Part shown: piece by piece, positions 7,728 through 40,077 of the stretch | Layout of the letters: each line of letters starts with the position of its first letter | How positions within the stretch are numbered: position 1 is the first letter of the stretch | NCBI RefSeq assembly: GCF_030013595.1 | Contig: NZ_CP122768.1 | Direction: 5' to 3' (one strand) | From: Escherichia coli | GTDB taxonomy: Bacteria; Pseudomonadota; Gammaproteobacteria; Enterobacterales; Enterobacteriaceae | DNA length: 64,000 nt | Notes under the pieces: model-generated | The model's database searches: none | The model's input: the letters and a program-made list of their open reading frames with translations, nothing else | What the model was told of the DNA's origin: nothing | Made by a program: the position numbers and the translations under genes

Positions 7728-7953
7728 CATCTTTATTCATTCACAGCGATTTAAATGCAATGTGTTCTACCACTTTATGTTCGAAGAAAAGGCGTATTTC
7801 CTCAATTAAACCATGATCCGCGCCACACTTTTCTCATAAAACTGCTTATTAATCATCAGGAGTTGATCAAAACAGGGGTTCGGCGTATTAAAGTTTGCTA
7901 ACCTGTCGCACCAATTTAAACAGGTTGTATGACTAATCAGAAGGGAACCCATT

Positions 7954-9405: not shown

Positions 9406-9412
9406 TACTCTG

Positions 9413-9440
9413 AACCCGGTTTCGACCGGGTTTCTTATTT
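9413..9440 (+). terminator. Rho-independent terminator after uxaB
   Basis: Inverted repeat AACCCGGT-TTCG-ACCGGGTT followed by TCTTATTT, 8 nt after the uxaB stop. Confidence 0.7.
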
Positions 9441-9601
9441 CACTATATTAGTTACAACATCCTATGTGCCTTTATCATTAACGGGTGCCATATGCCACAC
9501 CTGTAAATGTTGTAAGCTTGTAGGTAATTTGTACGTAGCGTCTTGAGAATGTGATCGTAATCACGTTTAATAGGGCGACTTTTCCACGCCTGAAGATAAC
9601 C

Positions 9602-10516: not shown

Positions 10517-10519
10517 GAT

Positions 10520-11278
10520 TTACTCCGTACGCCGGGCAACAATAAACAGACGCGGAAATGCCAGCAGTATCTGTCCGTTCTCTTGCAGTGGATACTGCTC
10601 TTCCAGCATCTGATGGTAGCGCGTAAGAAAATGCTGCTGTTCGCTCTCGGTCAGATCCTGTAACCACGGACGTAATCCAGTGGCGGTCACCCAATCGATA
10701 ATCGCCTGGTGCGACGGCATCTGGTGATAGTAAGTGGTTCGCCAGATATCGACCTCACATCCGGCTTCGCTCAAAATATCGTAGTAAGCATGAACGCCAG
10801 CCAGCGGCTCACGCCCGCGATCCGGATAATTTTGTTCCCAGGCGACTTCGCGCATGAGCACATGGGTTGGCTCTAGCCAGTTATCTGGCATCTGTACTGC
10901 CAACACACCATGCGAATTAAGTAAAGAAACCAGATGAGGGAACAATTCGTAGTGGTCGGGCAGCCATTGCAGTGAGGCATTAGCAAAAATCAGATCGAGT
11001 GCCTGTTCCGGTTGCCAGTTGCGGATGTCTGCTTCCACGAACTGGCAGTCTGGCAAAGCACTGCGCGCTTCAGCAATCATCGCCGGAGACGAGTCGATGC
11101 CTGTTATCCTGGCCGCAGGCCAACGTTGATGCAGCAGGGCGGTGCTGTTACCTGGGCCACAGCCAAGATCGGCAACGTATTCGATATTCTCCAGCGGCAC
11201 TCTGGCAAGCAGCTCCACCGCCGGACGCGATCGTTCAGCGGCAAAGTGCAGATATAAAGAGGGGTTCCAGTCAGACAT
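10520..11278 (-). CDS. tam: Trans-aconitate 2-methyltransferase
   Basis: 252-aa SAM-dependent methyltransferase ([10 protein letters not shown] motif), convergent with yneE; matches Tam. Confidence 0.9.
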
Positions 11279-11334
11279 TTTTTTACTCCCGTCAGCGCGT
11301 TACCCCAATTGTAGATAAAATTGATAAATTCGCC

Positions 11335-11625
11335 TCACGGCATCAACCCATTGAACAGACGTTTTTTACGCGGCCCGGTCATTAAAGATTCCAGTTTCGC
11401 GACACAGGTTTTGTAGTGGGGCGTGGTTTTATGGAACGCCACTGCGTCTTCATCTTTATAGGCTTCGTAGATATAAAAGCGCGAATTCACTTCCGGGTCC
11501 TGTAAGACATCGAAGCGCAAATTGCCTTCTTCCTGTACCGAGCCCAGGTGGTTCTGGCGAAAAACTTCGATAAACTCGTCAACCTTGTCTTCATGAACGT
11601 TAATTTCAACCAGTGTGACGTGCAT
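11335..11625 (-). CDS. lsrG: (4S)-4-hydroxy-5-phosphonooxypentane-2,3-dione isomerase LsrG
   Basis: ABM-fold protein starting [10 protein letters not shown] (track ORF extends 12 codons upstream); last gene of the lsr operon. Confidence 0.85.
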
Positions 11626-11647
11626 GTTTCTTCTCCTTAATCCGCAG

Positions 11648-12523
11648 TTACTGTTTTTCACTCAGATAGAGTTCATATGCCCGATCAGCCGTTTCGTTAT
11701 GGTGTACTACCGCCTGTACGGCTTTCATCATCGCCACCGGATGGTCAGACTGGAAAATATTACGCCCCATATCCACACCAGAAGCGCCCTGATCGATAGC
11801 CTGCCAGCACATTTCCAGCGCCTCGCGCTCCGGTAATTTTTTACCGCCAGCAATAACAATGGGTACCGGACATCCGGCAACAATCCGTTCAAAACCTTTT
11901 TCGACATAATAGGTTTTGATAATCTGCGCCCCCATTTCAGCGGCGATTCGAGTCGCGAGCGAGAAATAACGCTGATCGCGCACCATATCTTTGCCCACGC
12001 CAGTCACGGCCATGGTCGGCATTCCCACTTTCATTCCGGCATCGACCAGCTGAATAATATTTTTGATCGACTGATGTTCATATTCGCTGCCGATATAAAC
12101 CTGCGCCGCCACCGCGCAACTGTTCAGGCGCACGGCATCATCCATCGATAACGCCACGGCTTCATTACTTAATTCCGCCAGAATAGAGTTCGCACCTGAC
12201 GCCCGCAGTACCACCGGTTTATTGGTCGCAGGGGGGACTACGCTGCGCAAAATGCCGCGCGTACACATTAATACATCGGCATGTTCAAACAGCGGGGCGA
12301 TATTTATATCAATGCGTTCAAGTCCGGTAGTCGGCCCCTGAAAATAACCATGGTCAAAGGCCAGCATCACGGTTTTACCCGTTTTCGGATTAAATATCCG
12401 TGATAAGCGTGACTGCATTCCCCAATCCAGCGCACCGCAACCTTTCAGGGTAAAAGGGATATTTTGTTGCGGTTGATCGGTACGAAAATCTTTACCATCT
12501 TTAATATCGTCTAAATCTGCCAT
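11648..12523 (-). CDS. lsrF: 3-hydroxy-5-phosphonooxypentane-2,4-dione thiolase LsrF
   Basis: 291-aa aldolase-like ORF in lsr operon position. Confidence 0.9.
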
Positions 12524-12549
12524 AACGTACTCCGGTTAAGTAATGCACA

Positions 12550-13572
12550 TCAGAAATCGTATTTGCCGATATTCTCTTTGTTGAATATCACGCGCTCCGG
12601 TAACAGTACGATGCCATTACCATCCGCTTCGTAGTCATAGCCCTGAACGCTGTTTGGCGAGACTTCCACCTGACCTACGCCCTGAATATCCAGCTTGTCG
12701 CCCGTTTTCATTGATCCTTTTTTCAATAATTCATCCGCGACATAAACTGAAATTTTGCCTTGCTGAACCACATCCCACAGGCCAAATTCTTTCACCGTGC
12801 CGCGTTCCACATACGGACGCATCACGTTTGGCGTACTGAATCCGACAATCGCAACTTTGTCATTTTTCAGGTTTTCTGCGGCTTGTGCGGCAGCGGGCAG
12901 GGCGTTGGCGTCGGGGGCGATAATGGCGTCGAGATCGCTATACGCTTTTAATATTCCTTCTGCGGTTTGTAATGATTTAGTGGCATCGTTATAGCCAAAC
13001 TGCGTAGTGACAATTTCCCAGCCTGGATGCTCTTTGGCGATTTTCGCTTTCGCCTCTTTCACCCACTGGTTTTGGTCCGTAACGGTGGGGCTTGAGTAGA
13101 AAAACGCGACTTTGGCTTTGTCTTTATTCACCTGACGCGCCGCCATATCCACCAACATACCTCCCAACTGGGCGGGCGTTCCCTGATTAATGTAGTAAGA
13201 GCGGCACTCCGGTTTGGTATCAGAGTCCCAGGTCAGCACTCTCACACCACGTTGCATGGCGCGTTTCAGTGCCGGACACAAGCCATCAGGCGAAACCGCA
13301 GAAACGATAATGGCGTTATAACCCTGATTGACGAAGTTATTAATCAACTGTACCTGACCAGAAACACTGGGTTCTGTCGGCCCGTCGTAGGTCACATCAA
13401 CGCCCAGCTCTTTACCCGCTTGTTGTGCGCCGTTGCCACCGCTGGTAAAAAATCCCACGCCAACCAGTTTGGGAATAAATGCAATACGCTCTGCGGCCTG
13501 CACATTCATAGAGATTGCGGCAATGCCAAGCGCGCTAAGTAAGGCGATTTTCTTAAAGCGATGAAGTGTCAT
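12550..13572 (-). CDS. lsrB: Autoinducer-2 periplasmic binding protein LsrB
   Basis: 340-aa periplasmic binding protein with signal peptide ([26 protein letters not shown]). Confidence 0.9.
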
Positions 13573-13583
13573 GAAGATATCCT

Positions 13584-14576
13584 TTATGGCAATGGGTTAT
13601 TGGCCCGACGCGCCAGCCACTCTTTAATTTGCTGGCGATGCAGGCTAACGGAACGACCTACGACAACGACGATAAGTAGCGCACCGGAAAGGGCGCTGGA
13701 CACCTGATTTGGCACTCCTGCCATTTGCAAACCTTGTTGCAAATATCCCACTAATAAAACCGCAATGGCGGTGCCGATAATGGAACCGGAACCACCATAA
13801 ATATTGGCACCGCCAAGCACCACGGCGGTGATGGCGGGCATCAGAAACGACGCACCGAGATCGGAACGTGCTGATCCAAAATACGATACCAGCAGCACAG
13901 CGGCGACTGCAGACGCCAGCCCCGCCATGGCATAGAGCGCACACAAGGTGCGGTTAACTGGAATCGCGCTATAAACCGCCACACGCGGGCTTTGCCCAAT
14001 TAAAAACACGTTACGTCCGGCATGGGTTTTATGCAGCCAGAGCCAGAAAACGAGGAGACATATCAGGAAGATAATCAGCGGAACGGGGAGTCCCAGTACA
14101 TCCAGGTTAGCGAAATCTGTAAACGCCATCGGGAATCCACCAATACCTTCGTACCCCGTCGCTCCGGCCATCCCGGAAAGCAGCAGGGCACTTCCGGCAA
14201 ACAGATACAGCGTGCCAAGCGTAATCACCAGCGGGTTAACTTTGGTATAGATAATTAATCCGGCGTTGATCAGCCCGCACAATGCGCCGAGCAGTAAGGT
14301 CAGAAGAATCGCCAGCGGCATCGGCACACCACTTTGAAACAGTACGCCCAATGCAATGGCGCAGAGGCCGATAGTCGAACCAAACGAAATATCGATCCCG
14401 CCACTGACAATCACCATCGTCAGCGGTAGGGCGACAATGCCAATGCAGATAAAGTCACTGGTGCTGAACAGCAACATATTGAGATCTAACATCCGCGGGT
14501 TAATTGCACCAAATGCGACAATCTCAATAACGAGCAGTGCGGCAAGAGCCAGTTCCCAACCGTAGCGAATACGCAT
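13584..14576 (-). CDS. lsrD: AI-2 ABC transporter permease LsrD
   Basis: 330-aa polytopic permease; stop overlaps lsrC. Confidence 0.9.
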
Positions 14577-15604
14577 TATGCAGCCTCCCGTTTTTTACCT
14601 GACGAAGCGGGTTTAACGGATGGCGGTGGTGTCATAAAGCGGGCATATTTTTGCCGCCGCAGATTACGTTCCAGCGCACAACGCAGGCGTCCATCAAACA
14701 CCAGCACCGCCAGCAGCACGAGGCCCGCGATAAAATCGTTCCACCATGCCGGAATGCGCAACAGCACCAGTACACTATCGATCTGCGTCAGGAACCATGC
14801 GCCGAGTACCGCACCGATGATCGCGCCGGAACCGCCGAGCAAACTAATGCCGCCCAGCACGCAGGCTGCAATTGCTTTCATCTCCAGCCCGGTACCGGTC
14901 TGGTTGGGGATAAAACCAATCTGCGAAGCAAACACAATTCCCGCCAGTGCCGCCATGCAGCCGTTCAACGAAAATGCCACAATGCGAATGGCTTCCGTAC
15001 GAACGCCCAGTTGACGAGCGCCCTGTAAATTATCGCCCGTGACATAAAAACTGCGTCCAAACGCCGTCTTTGCCAGCAGCCAGGCCATAAATACCACCAG
15101 AATTATCGTCAACCAACCAATCGCGGAAACGCCAAACAGCAGCGGGGCGGAGAGCTGTTTCAGTTCGGCGGGTAACCCTTCAATCCATTTGCCGCCAGTC
15201 CACAGCAACATGATGCCTCTGGACAACCCTAACGTGCCAAGGGTGGCGACAATGGCAGGGATCTTTAGCCACGCGACCAGGACACCGTTGAAAAATCCCG
15301 CGAGCAAACCAAGCAGTAAAGTCGCGACACAAGCAACAGGTAGTGAATACCCCGCGTTCAGTAACATCCCCAACAGCACTGCGCACATTCCGGTAATCGA
15401 ACCTACCGAAACATCGATATTGCGCGTGAGCATCACCAGCGTCGCGCCCATTGCCAGCAGGATCAGGATTTGCGCGCTGCTATAAACCATGGTCAGCGTT
15501 TGCACACTTAAATACTGGCGGTCGAGAAAACCGGGTAATACAAACAGCAGCACCACCGCCAGCAGTGCCGTGATTTCACGGTTGTTCTGAATAAATTTCA
15601 GCAT
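14576..15604 (-). CDS. lsrC: AI-2 ABC transporter permease LsrC
   Basis: 342-aa polytopic permease; overlaps lsrA stop. Confidence 0.9.
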
Positions 15605-17133
15605 GACGCCTCCTGACGCTGACTATCGCCGAAGGCAACGCGCATAATGGTCTCGACATTAATATCGCGTCCGGTCAGTGCAGAGTGGGCAATTTCGCCC
15701 TGATGCATCACATATACGCGATCTGCCATCAGTTCGATCTCTTCCAGATCAGAGGAGATAAGCAGCACTGCCACATTCTGTGCGGCGATGCTGCGCAACA
15801 GCTGGTAGATATCATTACGGGCTGAGACATCCACGCCGCGCGTCGGCTCATCGACAATCAATACTTGCGGCGAGGCTTCCAGACATTTGGCAATCAGGAT
15901 TTTTTGCTGGTTGCCGCCGGATAAGGTCCGCGCAGCTTGTTCCGGTTGGTTAAATTTAATATTCAGCGCCCGACGATAACGTTCCAGTGTGGCGTTATCT
16001 TTCGCGGTTTTCGCCCAGAATCCACGAAGGTTATGAGTAAGGGCGCAGACATTCCAGGCCAGCGAAGCATCGAGATTCAGTCCGGATGACTGGCGATCTT
16101 CCGGCAGATAAACCAGACCGCGCAGTAAACGTTCTCCAGTGGATAATTTATTGATCTCTTTACCATTCAGCATAATGCGTCCGCCACGCAAAGTACGCAG
16201 ACCATAGAGCGTCTCGGCCAGTTCTGTGCGTCCGGCCCCCACCAGCCCAGCCAGACCCAGAATTTCTCCGGCATTAAGCGTCAGGCTGACATTCATAAAA
16301 CCTTCGCCGGTCAGGTTTTCCAGTGTCAGCACCGGCGTTCCGGCGGCATGTTGTGGGCGGTTGCCAGGTAACTCCAGCCATAATTTTTGGCTGGCAGAGA
16401 GCGATTTTTCCCGTAGCGCTGGCGTGATGGCCTGAATAATGTCGTCGGTAGACAGTTCGCTGGTTTTGCCGCTTAAGGCGATAGTTCCGTCGCGCATCAC
16501 GCTAATCCGATCGGCAATCTGGCGAATTTCCGGCAGCTTATGCGAGATAAAAACAATACCCACGCCAGTAGCAAGCAGCTCTTGCAAGCGAGTAAACAAG
16601 CGTTCGGTTTCCGCAGGGGTAAGCGAGGCGGTAGGTTCATCGAGGATCAGAATCCGCGAGTCGCGCATCAGCCCGCGGAGGATTTCCACCATTTGGCGAT
16701 CGGCGACATCCAGCGATCCTGCCAGACTATGCAGATCAAACTGGCAGCCCAGCGCCGCCAGCAAGTTCTTCATTTTCTGCATGGAGAGCTGTTTTTTTGC
16801 CAGCCCAAACAGAATGTTTTCTTTTATCGACAGGCTTGGGAAAAGCAGCGGTTCCTGGGGAACGAGATAAATACCCAGCTGATGAGCATGAACTGGCGTT
16901 AATCTGGTGTAGTTGTTGCCCCCAATCTCCAGCGTACCGCTATCAGCAGGGGTAATACCGGCAATAATCTTCATTAACGTCGATTTACCGGCACCATTGC
17001 CGCCGAGCAGGGCGTGGACCTCCCCCTGGTGCAACGTAAAATCGATGCCTTTCAGGACATTAACCCCTGAATACAGTTTATAAACCGAGCGGGCGCAAAG
17101 TAGCGGTAACGCGCGGGTATCACTCGTTTGCAT
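15598..17133 (-). CDS. lsrA: AI-2 ABC transporter ATP-binding protein LsrA (two ABC cassettes)
   Basis: 511-aa ORF with duplicated Walker A (GGNGAGKST / GLVGAGRTE) and ABC signature motifs. Confidence 0.9.
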
Positions 17134-17297
17134 ATTTCCCCCGTTCAGTTTTGCAGGTGAGTTTTGAACAAATGTATTTTTGCTTTTAATTTGTTCATAA
17201 CCTTAGGCGGGCATTGCATATATTTCCGACGAATAGATCACAATTTATGCTATTTTGATTTTCACGGTTGCGTTTGTTCATGCTCGTAGAGTCAAAC

Positions 17298-17313
17298 TGT
17301 GGTTGCTATCACA
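17298..17313. promoter_or_regulatory. Candidate CRP binding site in the lsrA-lsrR divergent promoter region
   Basis: TGTGGTTGCTATCACA matches the TGTGA-N6-TCACA consensus; lies in the 248-bp lsrA/lsrR intergenic region, which is known to be CRP- and LsrR-regulated. Confidence 0.5.
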
Positions 17314-17381
17314 GATATAAATGCGCAAGAACTGAACAATTGCATTAAAGATTGAAATATGTTCAAAGTGAAGAATGAATT

Positions 17382-18335
17382 ATGACAATCAACGATTCGG
17401 CAATTTCAGAACAGGGAATGTGTGAAGAAGAACTGGTCGCGCGGATCGCGTGGTTTTACTACCACGACGGGCTGACCCAGAGCGAGATCAGCGATCGCCT
17501 CGGGCTGACCCGTTTGAAAGTGTCGCGATTACTGGAGAAAGGGCATCAGTCCGGCATTATTCGCGTGCAGATTAATTCTCGCTTTGAAGGCTGTCTGGAA
17601 TATGAAACACAATTACGTCGTCAGTTTTCGCTGCAACATGTCCGGGTGATCCCAGGGCTTGCGGATGCTGATGTCGGCGGGCGACTAGGGATAGGCGCGG
17701 CGCATATGTTGATGAGTTTACTTCAACCACAACAGATGCTGGCGATTGGTTTTGGCGAGGCAACCATGAATACGCTGCAACGCTTAAGTGGTTTTATTTC
17801 GTCACAGCAAATTCGCCTGGTCACGCTCTCCGGTGGAGTCGGTTCTTATATGACGGGTATCGGGCAGCTTAACGCGGCGTGCAGTGTGAATATTATTCCG
17901 GCTCCGTTGCGGGCATCCTCCGCTGACATTGCCCGTACGCTAAAAAATGAAAATTGCGTCAAAGATGTTCTGCTAGCCGCGCAAGCAGCGGATGTGGCGA
18001 TTGTCGGCATTGGGGCTGTGAGTCAACAAGACGACGCAACAATCATTCGCTCCGGTTATATCAGCCAGGGCGAACAGTTAATGATTGGCCGAAAAGGGGC
18101 AGTTGGCGACATTTTAGGTTACTTTTTTGATGCAAAAGGTGACGTTGTCACGGATATTATAATACATAACGAACTGATTGGCTTACCTTTAAGCGCGCTG
18201 AAGACCATTCCCGTCCGGGTTGGTGTGGCAGGGGGAGAAAATAAAGCCGAAGCCATTGCCGCTGCAATGAAAGGCGGTTATATCAACGCACTGGTTACCG
18301 ATCAGGACACAGCAGCGGCGATTTTACGTAGTTAA
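17382..18335 (+). CDS. lsrR: Transcriptional repressor LsrR (SorC family)
   Basis: 317-aa ORF with N-terminal HTH and sugar-phosphate binding domain, divergent from lsrA. Confidence 0.9.
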
Positions 18336-18413
18336 ATTTGCATGACCTTATTACCGGGAATGATGGAGAACGTATAGAGGAACAGACAGAACGCATAAGC
18401 CGAGGATAATCTA

Positions 18414-20006
18414 ATGGCTCGACTCTTTACCCCTTCAGAATCAAAGTACTACCTGATGGCGCTGGATGCAGGCACCGGAAGTATTCGGGCTGTGATATTC
18501 GACCTAGAAGGCAATCAAATAGCCGTGGGACAGGCGGAGTGGCGGCATCTGGCAGTACCGGACGTTCCTGGTTCTATGGAATTTGATCTCAACAAAAACT
18601 GGCAACTGGCGTGTGAGTGTATGCGCCAGGCGCTGCACAACGCCGGCATAGCCCCGGAGTATATCGCTGCCGTTTCGGCATGTTCGATGCGCGAAGGCAT
18701 TGTTTTATATAACAATGAAGGAACACCGATCTGGGCCTGCGCCAATGTGGATGCCAGAGCGGCGCGCGAAGTTAGCGAACTTAAAGAACTGCACAGCAAT
18801 ACCTTTGAAAACGAAGTTTATCGCGCCACCGGACAAACGCTGGCTTTAAGCGCTATTCCCAGATTACTTTGGCTGGCGCACCATCGTTCTGATATCTACC
18901 GACAGGCGTCGACCATCACCATGATCAGCGACTGGCTGGCCTATATGCTCAGCGGCGAACTGGCGGTGGATCCCTCTAACGCTGGCACCATGGGACTTCT
19001 TGATCTAACCACCCGTGACTGGAAACCTGCATTGCTGGATATGGCCGGACTGCGGGCCGATATTCTTTCTCCTGTCAAAGAAACCGGCACATTGCTGGGC
19101 GTGGTAAGTTCACAAGCGGCGGAACTCTGCGGTCTGAAGGCGGGCACTCCGGTGGTCGTTGGAGGAGGCGACGTGCAACTTGGTTGCCTGGGGTTAGGCG
19201 TTGTGCGTCCGGCACAAACCGCTGTTCTTGGCGGCACATTCTGGCAGCAAGTTGTAAACTTAGCCGCGCCGGTGACAGACCCAGAAATGAACGTGCGCGT
19301 TAATCCCCATGTAATTCCTGGCATGGTACAAGCTGAATCTATAAGCTTTTTTACCGGACTCACCATGCGCTGGTTCCGCGATGCTTTCTGCGCCGAAGAA
19401 AAACTGATTGCCGAACGTTTAGGCATCGACACCTATACGCTGCTTGAAGAGATGGCAAGTCGGGTGCCGCCTGGGTCGTGGGGGGTAATGCCGATATTCT
19501 CCGACAGAATGCGCTTTAAAACCTGGTATCACGCTGCGCCTTCCTTTATTAATTTGTCTATTGATCCGGATAAATGTAACAAAGCGACATTGTTCCGTGC
19601 GCTGGAAGAAAATGCGGCGATTGTATCAGCGTGTAATTTGCAACAAATCGCTGATTTCTCGAATATTCATCCTTCATCGTTAGTCTTTGCAGGCGGAGGT
19701 TCAAAAGGGAAATTATGGAGTCAAATTCTCGCTGATGTCTCGGGATTACCCGTCAATATTCCGGTGGTCAAAGAAGCCACCGCATTAGGATGTGCCATTG
19801 CAGCTGGCGTCGGTGCCGGAATTTTTTCATCAATGGCAGAAACCGGAGAACGCCTGGTTCGCTGGGAACGAACGCACTCACCAGACCCGGAAAAGCATGA
19901 ACTTTATCAGGATTCACGCGATAAGTGGCAGGCAGTTTATCAGGATCAGCTGGGGCTGGTTGATCATGGACTGACGACGTCGTTATGGAAAGCGCCTGGG
20001 TTATAG
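18414..20006 (+). CDS. lsrK: Autoinducer-2 kinase LsrK (FGGY carbohydrate kinase family)
   Basis: 530-aa FGGY-family kinase (N-terminus [30 protein letters not shown]). Confidence 0.9.
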
Positions 20007-20050: not shown

Positions 20051-20535
20051 GAGTATTGGTATTCTCATTTCCCTTCTTTTAGAGCTGGCTTGTTAAATGC
20101 CAGCTTGCAAATTCATCGTTCCATCACCAGTACTATATTCAAGTGAAAATTGCTATTTTTCTTAAAGCATTAAGCATAAGCCTTATTTTATAGCGAATAT
20201 TCCTAAAGGCATTAATGGATGAAAAAGGGGTTTAATAAACTTCTTTTTTAGCAATTAGTGCTATTCTTTGTTAAATATGATGATGATAATCTTCTTATTG
20301 AAAGAAACAGTTTTCTTATTAAGCAACAATAACTCATGGTTCATTTTTAAATAAAATAAGAACTATGCAATTTTTAATCTATCGATTCGAAAGTATTAGC
20401 AAATTAGCCAAATTGACACCTTCCCACCTCCAACCAACACTCAATACAGACCTCTGACAACTTAATAAGTTTCATTTTTAACGTCTGATGACTCATCTCT
20501 TTCGTGGCTGTATTGTTTGTATATGGAGCGTTTAT

Positions 20536-23500
20536 ATGAATAGAATCTATCGCGTGATATGGAATTGCACCCTACAGGTATTTCAGGCCTGCTCGGAATT
20601 AACTCGCAGGGTAGGTAAAACATCAACGGTTAATTTACGTAAGTCCTCTGGACTGACAACGAAATTCAGTAGATTGACGCTGGGTGTTTTGCTGGCACTA
20701 AGCGGTTCAGCGTCAGGTGCGAGTCTGGAAGTTGATAATGGTCAGATTACCAATATTAATACTGATATTGCTTACGATGCCTACCTGGTTGGGTGGTATG
20801 GCACTGGAGTGCTTAATATTTTGGCTGGCGGTAATGCTTCCTTAACCACTATTACTACCAGCGTCATTGGCGCTAATGAGGGCTCGGAGGGCACCGTTAA
20901 TGTTTTGGGTGGCACCTGGCGATTGTATGATAGCGGAAATAATGCAAGGCCTTTAAATGTGGGTCAATCCGGAACGGGGACGCTGAATATTAAACAGAAG
21001 GGTCACGTTGACGGAGGATATTTAAGGATAGGTTCTTCGACAGGAGGCGTCGGGACGGTCAATGTTGAGGGAGAGGACTCGGTTCTGACGACCGAATTAT
21101 TCGAAATAGGGAGTTACGGTACAGGCTCATTAAATATTACGGATAAGGGTTACGTCACGAGTTCAATAGTCGCCATTGTAGGATATCAGGCGAACAGCAA
21201 TGGTAAGGTTGTCGTTGAAAAGGGTGGCGAGTGGCTAATAAAAAATAATGATTCCTCAATTGAATTTCAAATTGGCAATCAAGGGACGGGGGAAGCGATT
21301 ATTCGCGAGGGGGGGCTGATTACGGCTGAAAATACGATTATCGGAGGCAATGCCACCGGTATCGGAACCCTGAATGTGCAGGATCAAGACTCTGTCATCA
21401 CGGTACGCAGACTCTATAATGGATATTTCGGTAATGGCAAAGTCAATATTTCAAATAATGGACTGATTAATAACAAAGAATATTCATTGGTGGGCGTTCA
21501 GGACGGTTCCCACGGTGTCGTCAACGTGACTGATAAAGGGCATTGGAATTTCCTCGGAACGGGCGAAGCTTTCCGCTATATCTATATCGGTGATGCTGGC
21601 GATGGTGAACTTAATGTCTCGAGTGAAGGCAAAGTAGATTCGGGAATTATCACTGCGGGGATGAAAGAAACAGGCACAGGCAACATTACTGTTAAGGATA
21701 AGAACTCCGTTATCACTAATCTCGGAACTAATCTTGGTTATGACGGCCACGGCGAAATGAATATCAGTAATGATGGGCTTGTTGTCAGCAACGGAGGAAG
21801 TTCACTCGGTTATGGAGAAACCGGCGTTGGGAAGGTTAGCATCACCACGGGGGGGATATGGGAGGTCAATAAGAATGTCTATACCACCATTGGTGTTGCG
21901 GGCGTCGGAAACCTCAATATTAGCGATGGCGGTAAGTTTGTATCGCAAAATATTACATTTTTGGGCGATAAAGCAAGCGGTATCGGCACACTGAACCTGA
22001 TGGATGCGACATCATCGTTCGATACTGTGGGTATCAATGTCGGTAATTTTGGTAGCGGCATCGTAAATGTCAGTAATGGTGCCACCCTTAATTCAACGGG
22101 CTATGGATTTATCGGAGGAAATGCCTCCGGTAAGGGGATAGTTAATATTTCAACGGATAGTCTCTGGAATTTAAAAACGTCATCTACTAACGCCCAATTG
22201 CTACAGGTCGGTGTATTAGGCGCGGGTGAACTGAATATTACCACCGGAGGTATAGTTAAAGCGCGTGATACACAAATAGCTCTCAATGACAAAAGTAAGG
22301 GTGACGTGCGGGTGGATGGGCAGAACTCTCTTCTTGAAACATTCAATATGAACGTAGGGACGACAGGCACGGGTACGTTAACCCTGACGAATAACGGTAC
22401 GCTGAATGTCGAAGGTGGAGAGGTTTACTTAGGTGTTTTTGAGCCTGCTGTAGGAACGCTAAACATTGGTGCTGCTCACGGTGAGGCGGCGGTAGATGCC
22501 GGGTTTATCACCAATGCGACGAAAGTGGAGTTTGGTCCTGGCGAAGGCGTTTTTGTCTTTAATCATACCAATAACAGTGATGCCGGCTACCAGGTCGATA
22601 TGCTGATTACGGGTGACGATAAAGACGGAAAAGTGATGCATGATGCAGGCCATACGGTGTTCAATGCAGGGAATACTTATAGCGGTAAAACGCTGGTCAA
22701 TGACGGCCTCCTGACCATTGCGTCTCATACGGCAGATGGGGTAACGGGCATGGGTTCGAGTGAAGTAACCATTGCAAACCCCGGTACGCTCGACATTCTC
22801 GCATCAACGAACAGTGCAGGAGATTACACGCTGACCAATGCGCTCAAAGGCGATGGCTTGATGCGAGTGCAGCTGTCATCCTCCGACAAGATGTTTGGCT
22901 TTACCCATGCATCAGGGACTGAATTCGCCGGTGTTGCCCAACTGAAAGATAGTACCTTCACTCTGGAACGCGACAACACCGCTGCGCTTACTCACGCGAT
23001 GTTGCAGTCTGACATTGAAAATACCACATCGGTAAACGTGGGAGAGCAATCCATTGGTGGACTGGCCATGAATGGCGGTACGCTCATTTTCGATACGGAT
23101 ATTCCTGCTGCGACGCTCGCGGAGGGATATATCAGCGTCGATACGCTGGTTGTCGGCGCGGGTGACTACACCTGGAAAGGCCGTAACTATCAGGTAAACG
23201 GGACGGGCGACGTGCTTATCGACGTGCCTAAACCGTGGAATGATCCCATGGCGAATAACCCTCTGACGACGCTCAATTTGCTGGAACACGATGATAGTCA
23301 TGTCGGCGTTCAACTGGTGAAGGCGCAAACGGTTATTGGGTCGGGTGGCTCATTAACGTTACGTGATTTACAGGGCGACGAGGTGGAAGCGGACAAAACG
23401 TTACATATTGCACAAAACGGGACAGTGGTCGCCGAGGGTGATTATGGATTCCGCCTCACGACCGCACCAGGTGATGGTTTGTACGTTAACTATGGGCTGA

Positions 23501-25955
23501 AAGCGCTGAACATCCATGGTGGGCAAAAGCTGACGTTAGCCGAACATGGCGGAGCCTATGGCGCAACGGCCGATATGTCGGCAAAAATCGGTGGTGAAGG
23601 GGATCTGGCAATCAATACGGTACGACAGGTTTCGCTTTCCAACGGTCAGAACGACTATCAGGGGGCAACCTACGTTCAGATGGGGACATTACGTACCGAT
23701 GCGGATGGCGCGCTGGGCAACACCCGGGAACTGAACATCAGCAACGCGGCCATCGTCGATCTTAATGGATCGACCCAGACGGTAGAGACATTCACCGGGC
23801 TGATGGGTTCGACTGTTTTGTTCAAAGAAGGTTCGCTGACGGTGAATAAAGGTGGGATCAGTCAGGGCGAACTGACAGGTGGCGGAAACCTGAATGTTAC
23901 AGGGGGAACACTGGCTATCGAGGGGCTTAATGCACGCTACAATGCGTTAACCAGCATTAGCCCAAATGCGGAAGTCAGCCTCGATAATACGCAGGGGTTA
24001 GGCAGAGGAAATATTGCCAATGACGGTCTGTTAACGCTAAAAAATGTGACCGGCGAACTGCGTAATAGCATAAGCGGGAAGGGTATCGTGAGCGCAACCG
24101 CCAGGACAGACGTAGAGCTGGATGGCGATAATAGCCGCTTTGTGGGGCAATTCAACATTGATACAGGCAGCGCGCTCAGCGTCAACGAGCAGAAAAACCT
24201 GGGTGATGCTTCCGTTATCAATAATGGCCTGCTCACCATCTCCACTGAGCGTAGCTGGGCGATGACGCACAGTATCAGCGGTAGCGGTGATGTGACAAAA
24301 CTGGGTACCGGGAGCCTGACTCTTAACAACGATTCCGCGGCGTATCAGGGTACGACGGATATCGTGGGTGGTGAAATTGCTTTCGGTTCCGACTCTGCCA
24401 TTAATATGGCAAGTCAGCACATTAATATCCATAACAGCGGTGTGATGTCGGGAAATGTCACCACTGCAGGTGATGTGAACGTTATGCCTGGGGGACACTG
24501 CGTGTCGCCAAAACCACTATCGGCGGCAATCTGGAGAATGGTGGCACGGTTCAAATGAATAGCGAAGGGGGGAAACCGGGGAATGTGCTGACCGTTAACG
24601 GCAACTATACCGGAAACAATGGCCTGATGACGTTCAACGCGACGCTGGGCGGCGATAATTCGCCCACCGATAAGATGAACGTGAAAGGCGATACCCAAGG
24701 GAACACTCGCGTTCGGGTTGATAACATTGGCGGCGTCGGTGCACAAACGGTCAACGGTATTGAACTCATTGAGGTTGGCGGTAATTCTGCAGGTAACTTC
24801 GCGCTGACCACCGGAACTGTCGAAGCTGGGGCTTACGTCTACACGCTGGCTAAAGGGAAGGGGAATGACGAGAAAAACTGGTATCTGACCAGTAAATGGG
24901 ACGGCGTAACGCCAGCGGATACACCCGATCCCATCAATAATCCTCCTGTTGTGGATCCGGAAGGCCCATCAGTTTATCGCCCGGAGGCCGGAAGCTATAT
25001 CAGCAACATTGCCGCAGCCAACTCGCTGTTTAGCCATCGTTTACACGACCGTCTGGGTGAGCCGCAGTATACAGATTCACTGCATTCTCAGGGTTCGGCA
25101 AGCAGTATGTGGATGCGTCATGTCGGAGGGCACGAACGTTCAAGGGCCGGTGACGGTCAGCTAAATACTCAGGCTAACCGCTATGTATTGCAGCTAGGAG
25201 GCGATTTGGCGCAGTGGAGTAGCAACGCGCAGGATCGCTGGCATCTTGGCGTGATGGCAGGCTACGCCAATCAGCACAGTAATACTCAGAGTAATCGTGT
25301 GGGTTATAAATCGGATGGGCGCATCAGCGGTTACAGCGCAGGACTGTACGCGACCTGGTATCAGAACGATGCGAATAAGACCGGCGCTTATGTTGACAGC
25401 TGGGCGCTGTATAACTGGTTTGATAACAGCGTCAGTTCCGATAACCGTTCTGCTGTCGACTATGATTCTCGCGGTGTGACGGCCTCTGTTGAGGGTGGGT
25501 ATACCTTTGAAGCGGGAACATTTAGCGGCAGCGAAGGGACGCTGAATACCTGGTACGTCCAGCCACAGGCGCAAATCACCTGGATGGGTGTGAAAGATTC
25601 TGACCATACCCGGAAAGACGGAACACGCATTGAAACGGAAGGCGACGGAAACGTGCAAACGCGACTTGGGGTGAAAACCTACCTGAACAGTCATCACCAG
25701 CGTGACAATGGTAAACAGCGTGAGTTCCAGCCTTACATTGAAGCGAACTGGATCAACAACAGCAAAGTCTACGCCGTGAAGATGAATGGTCAAACCGTAA
25801 GCCGTGATGGTGCGCGTAGTCTCGGTGAAGTACGTACCGGGGTTGAGGCGAAAGTAAATCACAACCTTAGCCTGTGGGGGAATGTCGGTGTGCAACTAGG
25901 TGATAAAGGCTATAGCGATACTCAGGGCATGCTGGGTGTGAAATATAGCTGGTAA
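20536..25955 (+). pseudogene. yneO: AIDA-I-type autotransporter adhesin, frameshifted (about 1340-aa passenger reading frame + 466-aa C-terminal segment carrying the beta-barrel)
   Basis: Autotransporter extended signal peptide (MNRIYRVIWNCTLQVF...), repetitive Gly/Thr/Asn-rich passenger, C-terminal ...LGVKYSW barrel ending. The reading frame shifts at the G5 run 24490-24494; the continuous protein (…GGTLRVAKTTIGGNLENGGTVQMNSEGG…) needs a -1 shift. K-12 carries a pseudogene at this locus. Confidence 0.75.
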
Positions 25956-26165: not shown

Positions 26166-26432
26166 ATGATGAGCTTTCAGAAGATCTATAGCCCAACGCA
26201 ATTAGCGAATGCAATGAAACTGGTTCGTCAGCAAAATGGCTGGACGCAGAGCGAGCTGGCGAAAAAAATTGGTATTAAGCAGGCGACGATTTCCAATTTC
26301 GAAAACAACCCTGACAATACCACGCTGACGACCTTTTTTAAGATTTTACAGTCGCTTGAACTCTCAATGACGCTATGCGACGCGAAAAATGCCTCGCCAG
26401 AATCAACAGAACAGCAAGATCTGGAGTGGTAA
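26166..26432 (+). CDS. hipB: Antitoxin/repressor HipB (88 aa, XRE-type HTH)
   Basis: MMSFQKIYSPTQLANAMKLVRQQNGWTQSELAKKIGIKQATISNFENNPDN...; the ORF track starts at an upstream TTG, the true start is the ATG at 26166. Confidence 0.9.
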   Translation: MMSFQKIYSPTQLANAMKLVRQQNGWTQSELAKKIGIKQATISNFENNPDNTTLTTFFKILQSLELSMTLCDAKNASPESTEQQDLEW

Positions 26433-27242
26433 TGCCTAAACTTGTCACTTGGATGAACAACCAGCGGGTAGGCGAGTTAACGAAGTTAGCCAACGGCGCG
26501 CACACCTTTAAGTATGCACCGGAGTGGTTAGCCAGCCGTTATGCCAGACCGTTGTCACTTTCGCTGCCATTGCAGAGGGGGAATATCACCTCTGATGCCG
26601 TATTTAACTTCTTCGATAACCTGTTACCCGATAGCCCGATTGTACGTGACCGGATCGTTAAACGTTATCATGCCAAATCCAGACAACCGTTTGATTTATT
26701 GTCAGAAATAGGGCGAGACAGCGTTGGTGCCGTGACGTTAATACCCGAAGACGAAACCGTAACGCATCCGATAATGGCATGGGAAAAGCTTACTGAAGCC
26801 AGACTTGAAGAAGTATTAACGGCTTATAAAGCAGATATCCCTCTGGGCATGATTAGAGAAGAAAATGACTTTTATTCAGGCTGGCGGCAGTTATCGACTC
26901 ACGCCATTTTACGACATCATTTCAGCATTTCCGGTATTGGGTGGCGCAGGAATACACATCAGCGATCTCAAACTGGCAATGGGGCTTAACGCATCCAAAG
27001 GCAAAAAAACGGCAATCGATAAAATTTATCCGCGACATTTTCTGGCGACAGCAAAGTTGCTGAAATTTCCGGAAGTGCAGATGCATGAAATCCTGAGTGA
27101 CTTTGCCAGAATGATTCCGGCAGCACTGGATAACGTGAAGACTTCATTACCGACAGATTTTCCGGAGAACGTGGTGACGGCAGTTGAAACCAATGTGTTG
27201 AGGTTGCACCGTCGGTTAAGCCGAGAATACGGTATTAAGTAA
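26432..27242 (+). pseudogene. hipA: hipA toxin kinase gene with an internal out-of-frame deletion (about 0.5 kb missing)
   Basis: N-terminal 150 residues (MPKLVTWMNNQRVGELTK...GMIREENDF) then the frame breaks near 26870-26878; the C-terminal 125 residues (FIQAGGSYRLTPFYDIISAF...LSREYGIK) continue in a different frame. Locus is 811 bp versus about 1323 bp for intact hipA. Confidence 0.8.
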
Positions 27243-33076: not shown

Positions 33077-33891
33077 ATTTTAGCAAGTATTTGAAGCTAA
33101 ATGGAGTCATGAAAAAGAGAGGGCAAAGCCGAACTCCGCCCTCTCCCGTCAAGCACTGATATATCTCATTAAAATGAGATTAACAGCGCGCACTCCTATA
33201 TGCTAGTCGTATATAAATATAATGTCAGCCAGTCCCGGATGCAACTCTTTAATGAAGTTCAGTACTCTCTTTTTTTAGTTATCGAAATGATAGTTGGTAC
33301 AAGGGAACACACGAAGAGGAAAATTGCGATGACTTTGACGCAGAGCATGTTGAGTCTATTATTGCGACCCTCGAAGCTCTGGATGCGTTAGATTTACGCC
33401 ACGGAAGATGGACTGTAAGTATCCCTCCAATAGTGCGACTCACTTACCCAGATTGTAAGTTCAAACGGTCGAAGGCACTAGATTCTGATAAGAATTTGAG
33501 GCGCATGAGTACAGGCATTCGATTGTCAGCTTCTGGGTAGTTGTGGGAATTCTGCTCAAAGTGCCGCTGGCCAAAACATATTGGGCGCTGGTCTGTGGCG
33601 GCAAAATGGTGTCACGTAAAAGATACAGATGTTCCAGTCTATTTTTGCCCAATAACGTGCCCCGGGTTCAGTTTTTTTGCTCGGGACTAAAACGCTTATC
33701 CAGATCAGCCGCCAGCTGTTCAATACTCTTCGTTGAGCCTTTATAAATATACCAATCAAACTGTTAAAAACTCGTTCAAATTCGACCAAATATTATTACT
33801 GGCTGATATTAGTTCGGTTAGGCAAAGCGCAACAAACAACTAAGAAGTGCGCCTCAAAAAATTAATTGTAAGGCGCCCCCCTAAAACACAT

Positions 33892-36219
33892 TTATTCTGT
33901 TATATTTCTTGGCAACATAGAAAAAGATGCTTGAGACAATCCTGCGCGCTTGAATTTATACCGTATATATGTTGACACTTCCATCTCATGGTTTGACAAC
34001 AAAATCTGACGATCTGAAAGCTCTACCCGTAACAAATCACTCAATGAAGCAATGTTAATCTCATCCATTGACTGTACTGGATCATCAATCAGTATAAATG
34101 GATTAAGCGCATATACCCTATTCAATGTTAGGAAAAATGCCAAACCTAATGATGCGATTTGCCCACTACTCATAGACAGGATTGCATCATGATCAGACTT
34201 CAGCGCAGTATTGAATTTGAGTATATCTCCTTTACCGCTCACTATAAACAAACCTAACCCACGCTGATAATTCTGTATGAGTCTTCCACTATATATATGG
34301 AATAACAGCTCTATATCACCAATAGTCTTTTTCGCATACTGTTTCGCAGTGTCGTCCAATTGCCGCCTAAGATTAACAATTTTTGCTTTTATTTTTTTGC
34401 CAGCTTCAATCCTAGAACTGAGCTTATCAAGCTCCGCTACTTTGGACTTGTACTCTTCGCTTTTGAATTTAGAATGAGCGGCTCTGAGATAGGATTCTTT
34501 ATTTTCAAAATCTGAAACACTAAGTGAGGTTATATCTGATGCGTTCAAGAAAGCCATCTCTAAGCTAGATGACCAGTCTAAAGGGAGCACATCCTTTTCT
34601 GGTTTTTTAGCTGTAGCAATAATCCCTTTTGCTTCATTAAACCGTAACAGCAGAGCTGCATCATCAGCCGTAAAACTAAGATCTTTTGATACGCCATAAT
34701 TTACCAACTGCAAAGCCACTTCACTTATGATTGAGAACTTAGATTCTGCTGCTGTGAGAGCCTTAAAAAGCACACTATCGAAATCTTTTGCAACTAGGTC
34801 ACGCTGCTGTGTGAATGCTGTTATCTGTAAATTTAGTAAGTCCTGTATTGACCTTACTGTCTCCTCCAACTTCTGGGCAGAAGCATCTATTTCAGATCGA
34901 ATTCTTTCCGCATTATTTACAGCGGCTTCCTCTAACGCAGCGTAAGTCGCCCATGATAACCCACAGAATGGACAACCGGAAATTTCCAAATCTTCACATT
35001 CTTGGTGTCGCCGCAGCAACTCTGCATGAGCATTTAGTAAATTTACAAGCTTTGCGTTCTTAGCTGCACTATCAGATTTAATTAGATCCCGTGCCTCAAT
35101 GAGACTATTTACACCAACCAAATCAGCAGCGTTCTTAAGACCGTTTAGGTCTACTTCATTTATCTCTGAAGCTGGCTTTCTGAATATCAAAAGATCATGA
35201 TCCAGCCCAACTAGCGTTGACTCCTTTACTTTCAGACCTTCATATCCAGCTACTTCAGAACCCAACTGAAGAGCCAACTTTATATCGACCTCTCTTTTTA
35301 AAAACGCATCAATATTACTATTAGCCTTTCTCGTCAGAACTTCATCAAAGTTCTGATATATTCTAAATATATTCCGTAATTCACGTATCAGAGTTTCAAT
35401 ATCTGTATCATTTACAGCCGATAGAGGCTGTTCAACATCCCAACCAGGTGACGGCGTCGCGGTACTTAACCGCTTGAAGTCAACGGAATTCTCGGCATCT
35501 TGAAACTGACCACTAAGCTGTTTAATTTTTTCATTCAACTCAGCCTGGAGGTCAGTATGCACTTTCCCCGTATAAGATTCCGTAATAATACTTTCTAACT
35601 CGGAGCAATATGATATCTGTCTCGTCAATTTATCGGTATTAATAAGATGCTCAATGCCTTTTTTTCTTTCAGTGGCATCCGTCGAGTACAGGTATCTATT
35701 CTGCCCTTGCTCAAGATAGTTCAATAAAGAGAAATTTTTTAAGAAGTTCTCTCCTAGAATACTCTCTAGTGCTTTAGAATCAAGACTCTCTCCAAACTTA
35801 TCGGAGTCTATACTGCTTATTTCGTAAAGCTTAAAAATAGAGAAGTTATCAGGTGCATTATTATCCGGGTTCGATAAATCCGCTATGGTAGCAACACGAG
35901 CTAGGAAAATTGACTCTCCTGAATCTTGATTTATGAGCTCAGCTCTAATAGCGATGTCGCCCTCTTTATTTCTATTCCAGTATATGTTTTCTTCAAATTG
36001 TTTTTTGCGCGAACGTTTTGCAACTGTTGCATCATTTGTATTGATAATTCTTTGTATAACGCCAGTAAACAAAAGCTCCAACGCATCAAATATGCTAGTT
36101 TTTCCAAAACCATTGGGGCCATCCAAGGTAATCATGGAGGCAGATCGAAAATCAATAGATGTATTTTCAAATGGCTTGAAATTTTCAATCTTGAGGCTGG
36201 ATATTTTCCATTTCTTCAT
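33892..36219 (-). CDS. Rad50/SbcC/SMC-like ABC ATPase with coiled-coil insert and CxxC zinc-hook-like motif (LmuB-like), 775 aa
   Basis: N-terminal Walker A (IENFKPFENTSIDF...LDGPNGFGKTSIFDALELLF), central CPFCG motif in a predicted coiled coil, C-terminal signature/Walker B/H-loop (SSGQIASLG...FILIDDPVQSMD...LLSNHE). Confidence 0.65.
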   Translation of the reverse strand: MKKWKISSLKIENFKPFENTSIDFRSASMITLDGPNGFGKTSIFDALELLFTGVIQRIINTNDATVAKRSRKKQFEENIYWNRNKEGDIAIRAELINQDSGESIFLARVATIADLSNPDNNAPDNFSIFKLYEISSIDSDKFGESLDSKALESILGENFLKNFSLLNYLEQGQNRYLYSTDATERKKGIEHLINTDKLTRQISYCSELESIITESYTGKVHTDLQAELNEKIKQLSGQFQDAENSVDFKRLSTATPSPGWDVEQPLSAVNDTDIETLIRELRNIFRIYQNFDEVLTRKANSNIDAFLKREVDIKLALQLGSEVAGYEGLKVKESTLVGLDHDLLIFRKPASEINEVDLNGLKNAADLVGVNSLIEARDLIKSDSAAKNAKLVNLLNAHAELLRRHQECEDLEISGCPFCGLSWATYAALEEAAVNNAERIRSEIDASAQKLEETVRSIQDLLNLQITAFTQQRDLVAKDFDSVLFKALTAAESKFSIISEVALQLVNYGVSKDLSFTADDAALLLRFNEAKGIIATAKKPEKDVLPLDWSSSLEMAFLNASDITSLSVSDFENKESYLRAAHSKFKSEEYKSKVAELDKLSSRIEAGKKIKAKIVNLRRQLDDTAKQYAKKTIGDIELLFHIYSGRLIQNYQRGLGLFIVSGKGDILKFNTALKSDHDAILSMSSGQIASLGLAFFLTLNRVYALNPFILIDDPVQSMDEINIASLSDLLRVELSDRQILLSNHEMEVSTYIRYKFKRAGLSQASFSMLPRNITE

Positions 36220-36940
36220 GAATCAGAGTCTCGATTAGTTTGTCTGCTTCAATCCCAGATGCAGAAGCATTAAAGATTTTGAGATGAAGACCGGTCAATT
36301 TTTTCTCGGCGAGTGCTTCCTTTACATAAATATCAAGCGGCTTTAGTGAGCTTTCCTTAACAGGAACCTTTACAAATGGAAGCTTTATAAAAATTCTCGC
36401 CGCGACGCTATATAATGTAGGCGATAGTGGTTGATCTCGATATTCTGCAAACATCCTATCATCGACAACAATCGCTGAAACGCTTTCGAAGTTGTGCCCT
36501 TCTAACAACCTAAGCTCTTCCTCGCTGTAATAAAGAAAATATTTTTTAAAATAATATGGATTCTCTTCAATTCCAAACACCTTACTCTCAATTCCATTAA
36601 AATCAACTCGGTGCCTTAATTTATGCAAAATAATCAGATCGGTATTTTTATCGAAAGCAGGATCAGATTTGAATGTTTCAGGAGCATACAGTAACACTAA
36701 TTTATTCAGCACCTGCGGTGATGGTATATTTTCACACTCAACCACAGCGAGGAATCGCTTCCTATCTCCACTATCCTGACTAAAATAAGTCAAAGACTTA
36801 TAATCAACACCTTCAAGACCAGCTAAAGTTTCTCCTGCCGAATACTCTATGGTGACGTCATCTGCTTTAGAATAGTCGCCTGTATTAAACAAAGTAAACT
36901 CATGTTTCAAGGCAGCCTGTAGAACAATATCTTTAATCAT
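36185..36940 (-). CDS. Middle gene of the three-gene operon (251 aa), unknown function, possibly LmuC-like
   Basis: Start overlaps the upstream stop by 8 nt and its 3' end overlaps the downstream ATPase start, indicating translational coupling. No recognisable motif. Confidence 0.5.
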   Translation of the reverse strand: MIKDIVLQAALKHEFTLFNTGDYSKADDVTIEYSAGETLAGLEGVDYKSLTYFSQDSGDRKRFLAVVECENIPSPQVLNKLVLLYAPETFKSDPAFDKNTDLIILHKLRHRVDFNGIESKVFGIEENPYYFKKYFLYYSEEELRLLEGHNFESVSAIVVDDRMFAEYRDQPLSPTLYSVAARIFIKLPFVKVPVKESSLKPLDIYVKEALAEKKLTGLHLKIFNASASGIEADKLIETLIHEEMENIQPQD

Positions 36941-38195
36941 TCAACTTCACCCTCGCCTCTTCCTTTGAAATTATTTTTGCATCAAAGGCTTTAGTTATTT
37001 TGTTACGATCCTTACCCATCAATGAAAACTCATCTTCTACAGCATCCCGCGAAGCTCCGGTAGCTGCACAAAATCGCTCAGCGGGTGAAAAAATATTTGC
37101 TCTAGCTGCGATTAGCCATTGATATTCAACTAAGATATCTATCAGCTCTGGATCGCTTTTCAGCTGCTCTATTAGATCTTCAGCAAACCTATGCTCCCGT
37201 CGAGCATTGTCTGCCGAAATTGCTGTTGGCAAATAAAAATCTCCGGCAGAGCACCTATAGTAAGGAGGCTTTTGCTCACTCAGTGGCGCTTTATCTATAT
37301 CGTAGATCACATCCACATAATCATAAACACTGTTCTCACTCACGACCATTGTGGAAGATCCAAAACATAACGACTTCCACAACCATATAAATGGAGTATC
37401 ACCCAACTCTTTAATCTGATCGTAAACATTTGCAACTTTTTGAATAACAGTTCTATCTGCTGTTTTTTCCATTGTATTGGTATACCCATACAATGATTTA
37501 CAAACGGCCATCCTGGCTTGGAACATTTTGTATACAATGTCGTCTTCATGGGTAGCGGTGAGGCTTAATAACTCTACAATCTTCTCACTTTTTAAAGTTT
37601 GAGTAAACGCGGCTTGTGCGGCGCTCATTAACCCATCCTGATTGCACGCGTGTATATATATTACTTGAGCGGCAATATGACTCTGCAAAGCCTCGAACTT
37701 CAAATTCACTAAAAAATCACTGCAAGGTAACTCTTCGGAAACCAGGTACTTCTCAATTTTTGATTTCGTTTTTTCTTCAACATCTTGGAGATAGCAGTAA
37801 GGCAGTCCATCGTAAGTATAAAATTTAACGACATTCCCATTGCTGCCAACAAAATCAGAAGCATCATCAAGGCGCGCAGATGTATGAAAATATCTTTTGG
37901 TAGTCTTATCACACAACATATATGTAGATGCAGCTTTTTCGAGAGCCTCCCTATAGGCAGCTCTTTTATCATCTGCTAGCGCTTTTACCTGATGCGTAGA
38001 AACTGCAACTCCATTTTCAATTATCGAAAAATCATCAATGCTGTCGATTTGCAACTCAAACGACATTTTATTGAGCACACATTCTATGGAATGATAAAGC
38101 GCTAAATGCCCTTGATAAATAAACCCACTCCATGTAGGTGCAGCTGTATGAGGATGGGAGGAAGCCGATTTCGACATGCAATATGTCCTAGGCAA
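36933..38195 (-). CDS. Candidate effector of a three-gene defense operon: PD-(D/E)xK nuclease-like protein (possibly Cap4/DUF4297-like, LmuA-like), 420 aa
   Basis: N-terminal region WSGFIYQGHLALYHSIECV...QIDSIDDFSIIENGVAVSTHQVK has the E..D..E/QxK spacing of restriction-endonuclease-fold proteins; first gene of an overlapping operon; AT-rich. Confidence 0.5.
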   Translation of the reverse strand: MPRTYCMSKSASSHPHTAAPTWSGFIYQGHLALYHSIECVLNKMSFELQIDSIDDFSIIENGVAVSTHQVKALADDKRAAYREALEKAASTYMLCDKTTKRYFHTSARLDDASDFVGSNGNVVKFYTYDGLPYCYLQDVEEKTKSKIEKYLVSEELPCSDFLVNLKFEALQSHIAAQVIYIHACNQDGLMSAAQAAFTQTLKSEKIVELLSLTATHEDDIVYKMFQARMAVCKSLYGYTNTMEKTADRTVIQKVANVYDQIKELGDTPFIWLWKSLCFGSSTMVVSENSVYDYVDVIYDIDKAPLSEQKPPYYRCSAGDFYLPTAISADNARREHRFAEDLIEQLKSDPELIDILVEYQWLIAARANIFSPAERFCAATGASRDAVEDEFSLMGKDRNKITKAFDAKIISKEEARVKLND

Positions 38196-38524
38196 ATTTA
38201 GAGACAGAGTCAGAAGTAACCTTCTAACTCAGTAGAATATGATCTTAATTTCTGTATCCGATGTTTATATTTTTTGTTGAACGCGCCCAGCGGCGTTATG
38301 AAAACTTCCTTGATTGTCATTTTTATGCATTCTCTTGATCGATAGGAATTTAAATCCCAAAAAGATTAAAAAAACACCCAAAAACGGATGTTTATTCGAC
38401 ACTGCCTGCGTGCCATGAGTGCACCGCCATCAATTAAATGGATCTTATCGAGTGATACTGTATATCACTGATGGTTTTTTACTCCATTCCCCTGAAAATG
38501 GACGCAACTTCCCCGATGCGGCTC

Positions 38525-39757: not shown

Positions 39758-40077
39758 TCCGGGCAGTACATGCCGCCGGCGCTGATACCGGCAAGAATGG
39801 TCGCAAACTCCCGCTCCGTGCAGCGGGCTATTTCAGGATACCCTTCGTCATCGACACGAACAAACCAGAAGACCAGCTTTTTGTTTCCGGCATCCACAAA
39901 GAAGGGAATATTCAGGTCTGCGCAGCACTCAACGGCATCGTCAAAATTATCAAAGCGCAGAGCTTCTGCGTCTTCTTCGTCAAAGAAGTCATCGTCGTGA
40001 AGCTTCACGACATAGCGGGGAAGTTTGCTTCTTTGAGGGGCAGGTTTTCGTTTACGGGGTTTAGCTGAACGGGACAT
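39712..40077 (-). CDS. IS91 ORF121-like accessory protein
   Basis: 121-aa ORF immediately upstream of and overlapping the transposase gene, the size and position of IS91 orf121. Confidence 0.5.
   Translation of the reverse strand: MSRSAKPRKRKPAPQRSKLPRYVVKLHDDDFFDEEDAEALRFDNFDDAVECCADLNIPFFVDAGNKKLVFWFVRVDDEGYPEIARCTEREFATILAGISAGGMYCPECGTVHWPDGVPPPF

Follow-up and report, generated by a model that had tools for sequence, protein, structure and literature searches.

A frameshift in a G run of the ECSE_1600-family autotransporter gene at the Escherichia coli yneO locus

The window analysed here, a stretch of 64,000 nucleotides of Escherichia coli DNA, carries an AIDA-I-type (type Va) autotransporter gene of the ECSE_1600 family at the locus occupied in K-12 by the pseudogene yneO, and the reading frame of this gene is broken at a run of five G residues where all close relatives examined have six. 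Nothing about the break is out of the ordinary: it is a homopolymer frameshift, or else a homopolymer miscall, in an adhesin gene that is already known and often decayed. We consider it probable that the window carries a real 1 bp deletion in the G6 run, which would make the gene a pseudogene of recent origin, confined to this genome; that the base was lost during sequencing or assembly is a possibility to be taken seriously, and explanations that give the short G run a regulatory role are far less credible.

The autotransporter gene and its broken frame

The locus is fixed by its flanks. Upstream lies lsrK (18414..20006, plus strand), which places the gene at the K-12 yneO position, and downstream lies hipB (26166..26432, plus strand), followed by hipA with a 512 bp deletion; this placement between lsrK and hipB is typical of the ECSE_1600 family. 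A 5.8 kb region across the gene has matches in 5,338 of 5,426 complete E. coli genomes and is covered to at least 80% in 3,946 of them, and the matched copies are everywhere annotated as 'ECSE_1600 family autotransporter' in the lsrK–hipBA position. The sequence-only reading had noted that K-12 carries a pseudogene at this locus, and it does: yneO (b4696), formerly annotated as ydeK and ydeU, so that the window's gene is the yneO/ydeK-ydeU locus of K-12.

The intact form of the protein is found in the nearest complete genome, NZ_CM149870.1, where it is 1806 residues long (99.9% identity) and matches the ECSE_1600 family model, NCBIfam NF011422 (1806 positions, curated cut-off 2335 bits), over positions 1–1806 with 4134 bits. 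Pfam domains divide it into an ESPR signal peptide (residues 1–47), a repeat passenger between the ESPR and the autochaperone, an AC_1/pertactin autochaperone (together 1332–1452, with AC_1 at 1332–1438) and an autotransporter beta-barrel (1525–1784). Glycine makes up 15% of the protein, which has 34 Gly-Gly pairs.

In the window this single frame is divided in two. The G run, GGGGG, lies at 24490..24494 on the plus strand, and the ORF that enters it (20488..24558) closes at a TGA at 24556–24558, 64 nt past the last G, exactly where the sequence-only reading had the passenger frame end. The protein continues, as that reading also proposed, in the −1 frame, which is shut upstream by a TGA at 24471–24473 and then open from 24474 up to a stop at 25953–25955, with the translation ...GTLRVAKTTIGGNLENGGTVQMNSEGGKPGNVL...; because the −1 frame is closed upstream, the frame switch must fall within 24474–24555. 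With the PGAP-equivalent start at 20536, which matches the PGAP start in NZ_CM149870.1, the 5′ fragment (20536..24558, plus strand) encodes 1340 residues comprising the ESPR (Pfam, residues 1–47), the repeat-rich passenger with 8 T5SS/PEP-CTERM repeats, and 19 out-of-frame residues before the TGA; it matches positions 1–1321 of the 1806 in NF011422 with 2957 bits. The −1 frame continuation (24474..25955, plus strand) holds the remainder of the passenger, the AC_1 autochaperone/pertactin region and the autotransporter beta-barrel (Pfam), and contains an internal ATG ORF of 466 residues (24555..25955, plus strand), the counterpart of K-12 'ydeU'; this 3′ fragment matches positions 1341–1806 of the model with 1103 bits. 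The two fragments together span the family model, but on two frames: the break, at about codon 1320 of 1806, cuts the ESPR and passenger off from AC_1 and the barrel. Signal peptide, passenger, autochaperone and beta-barrel are all present in the DNA but not on one polypeptide, and the split copy does not qualify as a functional type Va autotransporter.

The most likely route of the loss, under the reading that the deletion is real, would be slipped-strand mispairing at replication, by which one G would have been dropped from the G6 run that encodes Gly-Gly at about codons 1319–1320. Translation would then read 19 wrong codons and stop, yielding a passenger fragment with a signal peptide and without autochaperone or beta-barrel; such a fragment should neither insert into nor be displayed on the outer membrane, and loss of function is thus predicted. 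The downstream 466-residue ORF has no signal peptide of its own.

A split gene of this kind could in principle still be expressed by recoding, through programmed −1 ribosomal frameshifting or through transcriptional slippage on the G run, and the geometry would allow it: a −1 slip of the P-site tRNA-Gly from GGA onto GGG would be expected to regenerate the exact wild-type ...PGGTLRV.... The zero frame here is CCU GGG GGA CAC, however, and U GGG GGA does not fit the canonical heptamer X XXY YYZ. Within the 90 nt downstream no stimulatory structure was detected (MFE −19.9 kcal/mol, where shuffled sequences average −21.75; z = +0.62), and no recoding signal is conserved, since in every relative one uninterrupted frame encodes the protein. 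A G5 run is also too short for efficient slippage by RNA polymerase. Programmed frameshifting at the G run is unlikely, and expression of the gene by either form of recoding has, in our judgement, the smallest chance of any explanation considered here.

The missing base compared with relatives, and the possibility of a miscall

Comparison with the 5421 nt gene of NZ_CM149870.1 gives two SNPs and one missing G with no other indel, CCT GGG GGG ACA in that genome reading CCT GGG GGA CAC in the window. Closer relatives were retrieved by exact-protein look-ups. Four NCBI drafts (L011–L014) differ from the window by 0–1 SNP over 8.3 kb, and again the missing G is the sole indel in the gene; one of them, L013, differs by no SNP and the one missing G. 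The same holds for CP057738.1 and UFZA01000001.1, both very close, in which the missing G is once more the only indel of the gene. Every close relative examined (one complete genome, four drafts and two further sequences) has G6 and a single open frame of 1806 codons, the six G residues forming the codons GGG GGG for Gly-Gly at about residues 1319–1320; because all of them have G6, the lesion is a 1 bp deletion private to this assembly. Alignment to intact homologues, suggested by the earlier reading, thereby places the frame switch in the G run, and its proposal that a single-base indel in the tract explains the break holds against the closest relatives.

Wider searches found the allele nowhere else. 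In 5,426 complete RefSeq genomes, searched with a 41-mer able to seed only across the tract, G5 with the window's flanks occurred in none and G5 with one flank SNP in six. The truncated products, of 1340 or 1356 residues, are absent from a collection of 15 billion proteins. The 466-residue ORF is present in that collection on 24 contigs, four of which were retrieved. In L011–L014 the annotation gives only a 466-residue 'beta-barrel domain-containing protein' inside an intact G6 ORF of 1806 codons, and such partial annotation of intact genes means that stand-alone 466-residue database entries are no evidence of a frameshift.

An allele private to one assembly, with G6 in at least seven near-identical genomes or contigs, is also what would be seen if the organism had G6 and an intact gene and a G had been dropped beside a Dcm-methylated site during long-read assembly or polishing. 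A motif search places CCTGG, the Dcm methylation motif, at 24487..24491, where it overlaps the first Gs of the run, and the Dcm CCTGG context is a known trigger of long-read base-calling errors; the overlap may therefore bear on errors at the 24490 run. That the window crosses an IS element unbroken suggests that it comes from a long-read assembly. Two further private small indels point the same way, a second homopolymer deletion (T8 to T7 at 33270, 9 kb from the G run) and an additional C at 51416 that breaks a fimbrial usher gene, and three small indels against four or five private SNPs is indel-rich for natural divergence; if indels make up about 10% of small mutations the excess would correspond to roughly P~0.05, which is not decisive. 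In RefSeq the same sequencing projects, and even individual assemblies, turn up repeatedly among the −1 alleles at three G runs of the gene (the ET and ETEC17 series and strain 81): ET881, ETEC1732 and strain 81 are each in two or three of the −1 lists. Several homopolymer deletions often fall within a single copy of the gene, and ETEC1731 and Z1322HEC0009 have three 1 bp indels each within it. Many of the RefSeq −1 alleles thus trace to a small number of projects and have the look of assembly errors.

Other observations speak against an artefact. Of about 100 runs of at least six bases in the 64 kb, only two differ from the relatives, both by shortening, and positions 1–19405 and 51715–64000 contain no indels relative to the closest relatives. 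The third small indel, at 51416, lies outside any long homopolymer. Divergence of the window genome from its relatives is real, as shown by private SNPs (12218, 17434, 54137 and 58589), the 512 bp hipA deletion and the insertion of an IS91-family element, which are not typical base-calling errors, and the tract itself is a proven natural indel site, documented by the K-12 allele (G8 against the in-frame G7). On this evidence a dropped base in the assembly has perhaps one chance in a few, and a base truly missing from the organism is the reading we favour with modest confidence. In long-read assemblies, single-base homopolymer 'pseudogenes' are concentrated in particular sequencing projects, and an assembly-private frameshift without read support should not be taken as biology.

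The G run in K-12 and across E. coli

The earlier reading had recommended comparing the site of the lesion with that of K-12, and the same tract turns out to be involved with the opposite sign. The yneO gene of MG1655 is 5422 nt long and its only indel relative to the intact gene falls at the same position as that of the window, the K-12 sequence at the tract being CCTGGGGGGGGCACTG. Here an A>G substitution (ACA>GCA, Thr>Ala) lengthens the run to an in-frame G7, an allele present in 24 of 40 evenly sampled matches (by extrapolation some 1,100 genomes). A direct check in strain AR435 confirmed this allele, in a gene that the annotation treats as intact. K-12 has G8, one G beyond the in-frame G7, which yields ORFs of 1325 and 466 residues, the old ydeK and ydeU. 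The exact K-12 allele is found in 389 records, and all eight rows sampled from these are laboratory K-12 strains. In one assembly of C600 (NZ_CM132660.1), a K-12 derivative, the tract is G9 instead of G8; the extra G may reflect another slip or a fault of the assembly.

K-12 yneO therefore shares with the window its locus, its family, a broken G run, and the resulting arrangement of an N-terminal passenger ORF followed by a C-terminal ORF of identical length, 466 residues. The two differ in that K-12 has a +1 (G8) on a G7 haplotype whereas the window has a −1 (G5) on a G6-ACA haplotype. With 137 SNPs between the K-12 allele and the intact gene of the window's nearest relative, the two lesions are independent events. 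That they lie in one G run with opposite signs is mildly notable; with about four runs of at least six G in the gene, two independent frameshifts would be expected to hit the same run by chance about once in three or four cases. The shared run is a handy marker site at which annotation pipelines should expect frameshifts.

A census of the tract shows how its alleles are distributed. On the CCT-G6-ACA haplotype 1,230 genomes are in frame, with out-of-frame G5 in six and G7 in none; on CCA-G6-ACA 613 are in frame and three have G5; on the K-12-like CCT-G7-GCA about 1,100 are in frame, with out-of-frame G6 in 42 and G8 in 389. Where inspected, the G5 and G6·CACTG alleles are annotated as 'frameshifted'. 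Tract lengths at this site thus range from 5 to 9 among E. coli records, many of the alleles coming from error-prone assemblies.

Other G runs of the gene served as controls. At a G6 run 77 nt downstream (24567), 64 genomes have G5, among them a whole O111 STEC clone with its reference strain 11128, and inheritance by the whole clone indicates that this frameshift is real and clonally inherited; at the G7 run of 21849, 37 genomes have G6. The 24490 tract was considered as a site-specific hotspot and rejected, since the −1 counts at the control runs are similar or larger. Like the lesion of the window, the O111 STEC frameshift is the loss of one G from a G6 run of this gene. It affects a different run, however, and is shared by the whole clone across many independent assemblies, while the allele of the window is private. 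Long G runs are not enriched in the gene: against 2,000 synonymous-codon shuffles, four runs of at least six G were observed for 2.41 expected (P=0.21) and two of at least seven for 0.53 expected (P=0.09). The gene is also disrupted in other genomes by insertions of IS1 and IS5.

These data bear on whether the tract acts as a contingency locus, at which reversible slippage (G5/G6, or G6/G7/G8) would toggle the adhesin within populations. The homopolymer switches of Neisseria and Haemophilus are simple-sequence contingency loci, and surface adhesins are the usual target class of phase-variation switches. Like those loci, the window has a G homopolymer within the coding sequence for a surface protein, polymorphic in length among isolates; all lengths from 5 to 9 are found, out-of-frame alleles occur on three different haplotypes, and K-12 and the window were struck in the same tract with opposite sign. 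Unlike those loci, the tract is short (5–8), not enriched and, by the −1 counts, not hit more often than the gene's other runs, and out-of-frame alleles at this gene are stably inherited, those of K-12 and O111 by whole clones. Tracts that switch at useful rates are longer than G5 to G7, and contingency genes have tracts that are long and over-represented, where the window has G5 and the in-frame alleles elsewhere have G6 or G7. On the G6 haplotypes out-of-frame alleles are rare, nine of about 1,850, and many of these resemble sequencing errors. Low-frequency slippage at the tract, as the earlier reading envisaged, is reasonable, but nothing indicates programmed phase variation, and a contingency locus here is very improbable. 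It is equally hard to credit that the Dcm-overlapping G run is a genuine low-rate ON/OFF switch of which the K-12 'pseudogene' and the window allele would be OFF states and not dead genes; if true, E. coli would gain one of its few cases of slipped-strand phase variation.

Known counterparts and other differences in the window

The closest described counterpart is ECSE_1600 of E. coli SE11, an 1806-residue protein whose gene is noted as intact in strains SE11 and HS but as broken in MG1655, E24377A and O157 Sakai (PMC2608844). The window fragments match the same model, NF011422, and it had already been reported that strains frequently carry disrupted copies of this gene (PMC2608844); the SE11 copy is intact whereas that of the window is split, by a G5 allele whose exact form is absent from complete RefSeq genomes. 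In the literature on yneO, ydeK, ydeU and ECSE_1600 we found nothing about the G tract, only the SE11 genome paper, mentions in gene lists and IS2 insertions, the last of which arise in yneO during long-term culture.

The type Va adhesins AIDA-I, MisL and YfaL (EhaC) share with this protein the ESPR, a repeat passenger, the AC_1/pertactin autochaperone and the C-terminal 12-strand barrel domain. Matches to their families are partial, over the C-terminal approximately 500 residues, and all fall below the equivalog cut-offs (for MisL 460 against 1297 bits), the ECSE_1600 passenger being a distinct family. The frameshift itself has little biological weight: it is either a miscall or a further independent loss of an adhesin gene that many E. 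coli lineages are already known to carry in broken form.

Several other differences were observed in the window. In hipA (26375–27242) a 512 bp internal deletion breaks the frame, with its junction at about 26871/26872; it is absent from all relatives examined, and among the matches listed in a search with the junction all are two-piece and intact and none shares the deletion. A separate 1 bp hipA frameshift (GGG>GG, window-equivalent 26781) is present in 18 near-identical NCBI draft contigs of the L011 type, and the two different lesions indicate that the toxin gene has been inactivated independently within one lineage. An intergenic T7 at 33270–33276 is T8 in NZ_CM149870.1, CP057738.1, UFZA01000001.1 and a more distant island copy. 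The fimbrial usher gene (50999–53651) is split by the extra C at 51416 into ORFs of 149 and 754 codons, while relatives of the window have an intact usher of 883 residues.

Adjoining hipBA is an integrase-bearing island (loci L016–L023) with an ABC-three-component-type module on the minus strand (33892–38195), composed of a CTD1-domain protein, a MComp1 middle component and an AAA ATPase; the island looks mobile, because an identical ATPase is found in several unrelated chromosomal contexts. An IS91-family element at 38345–40161, with its transposase ORF (Y2_Tnp and Zn_Tnp_IS91; 38525–39757, minus strand), is absent from all relatives. A stretch of 1,160 bp from lsrF to lsrB (11914–13073) is present in the window; a deletion has removed it from NZ_CM149870.1 and CP057738.1, in which a fused ORF of 254 codons is called.
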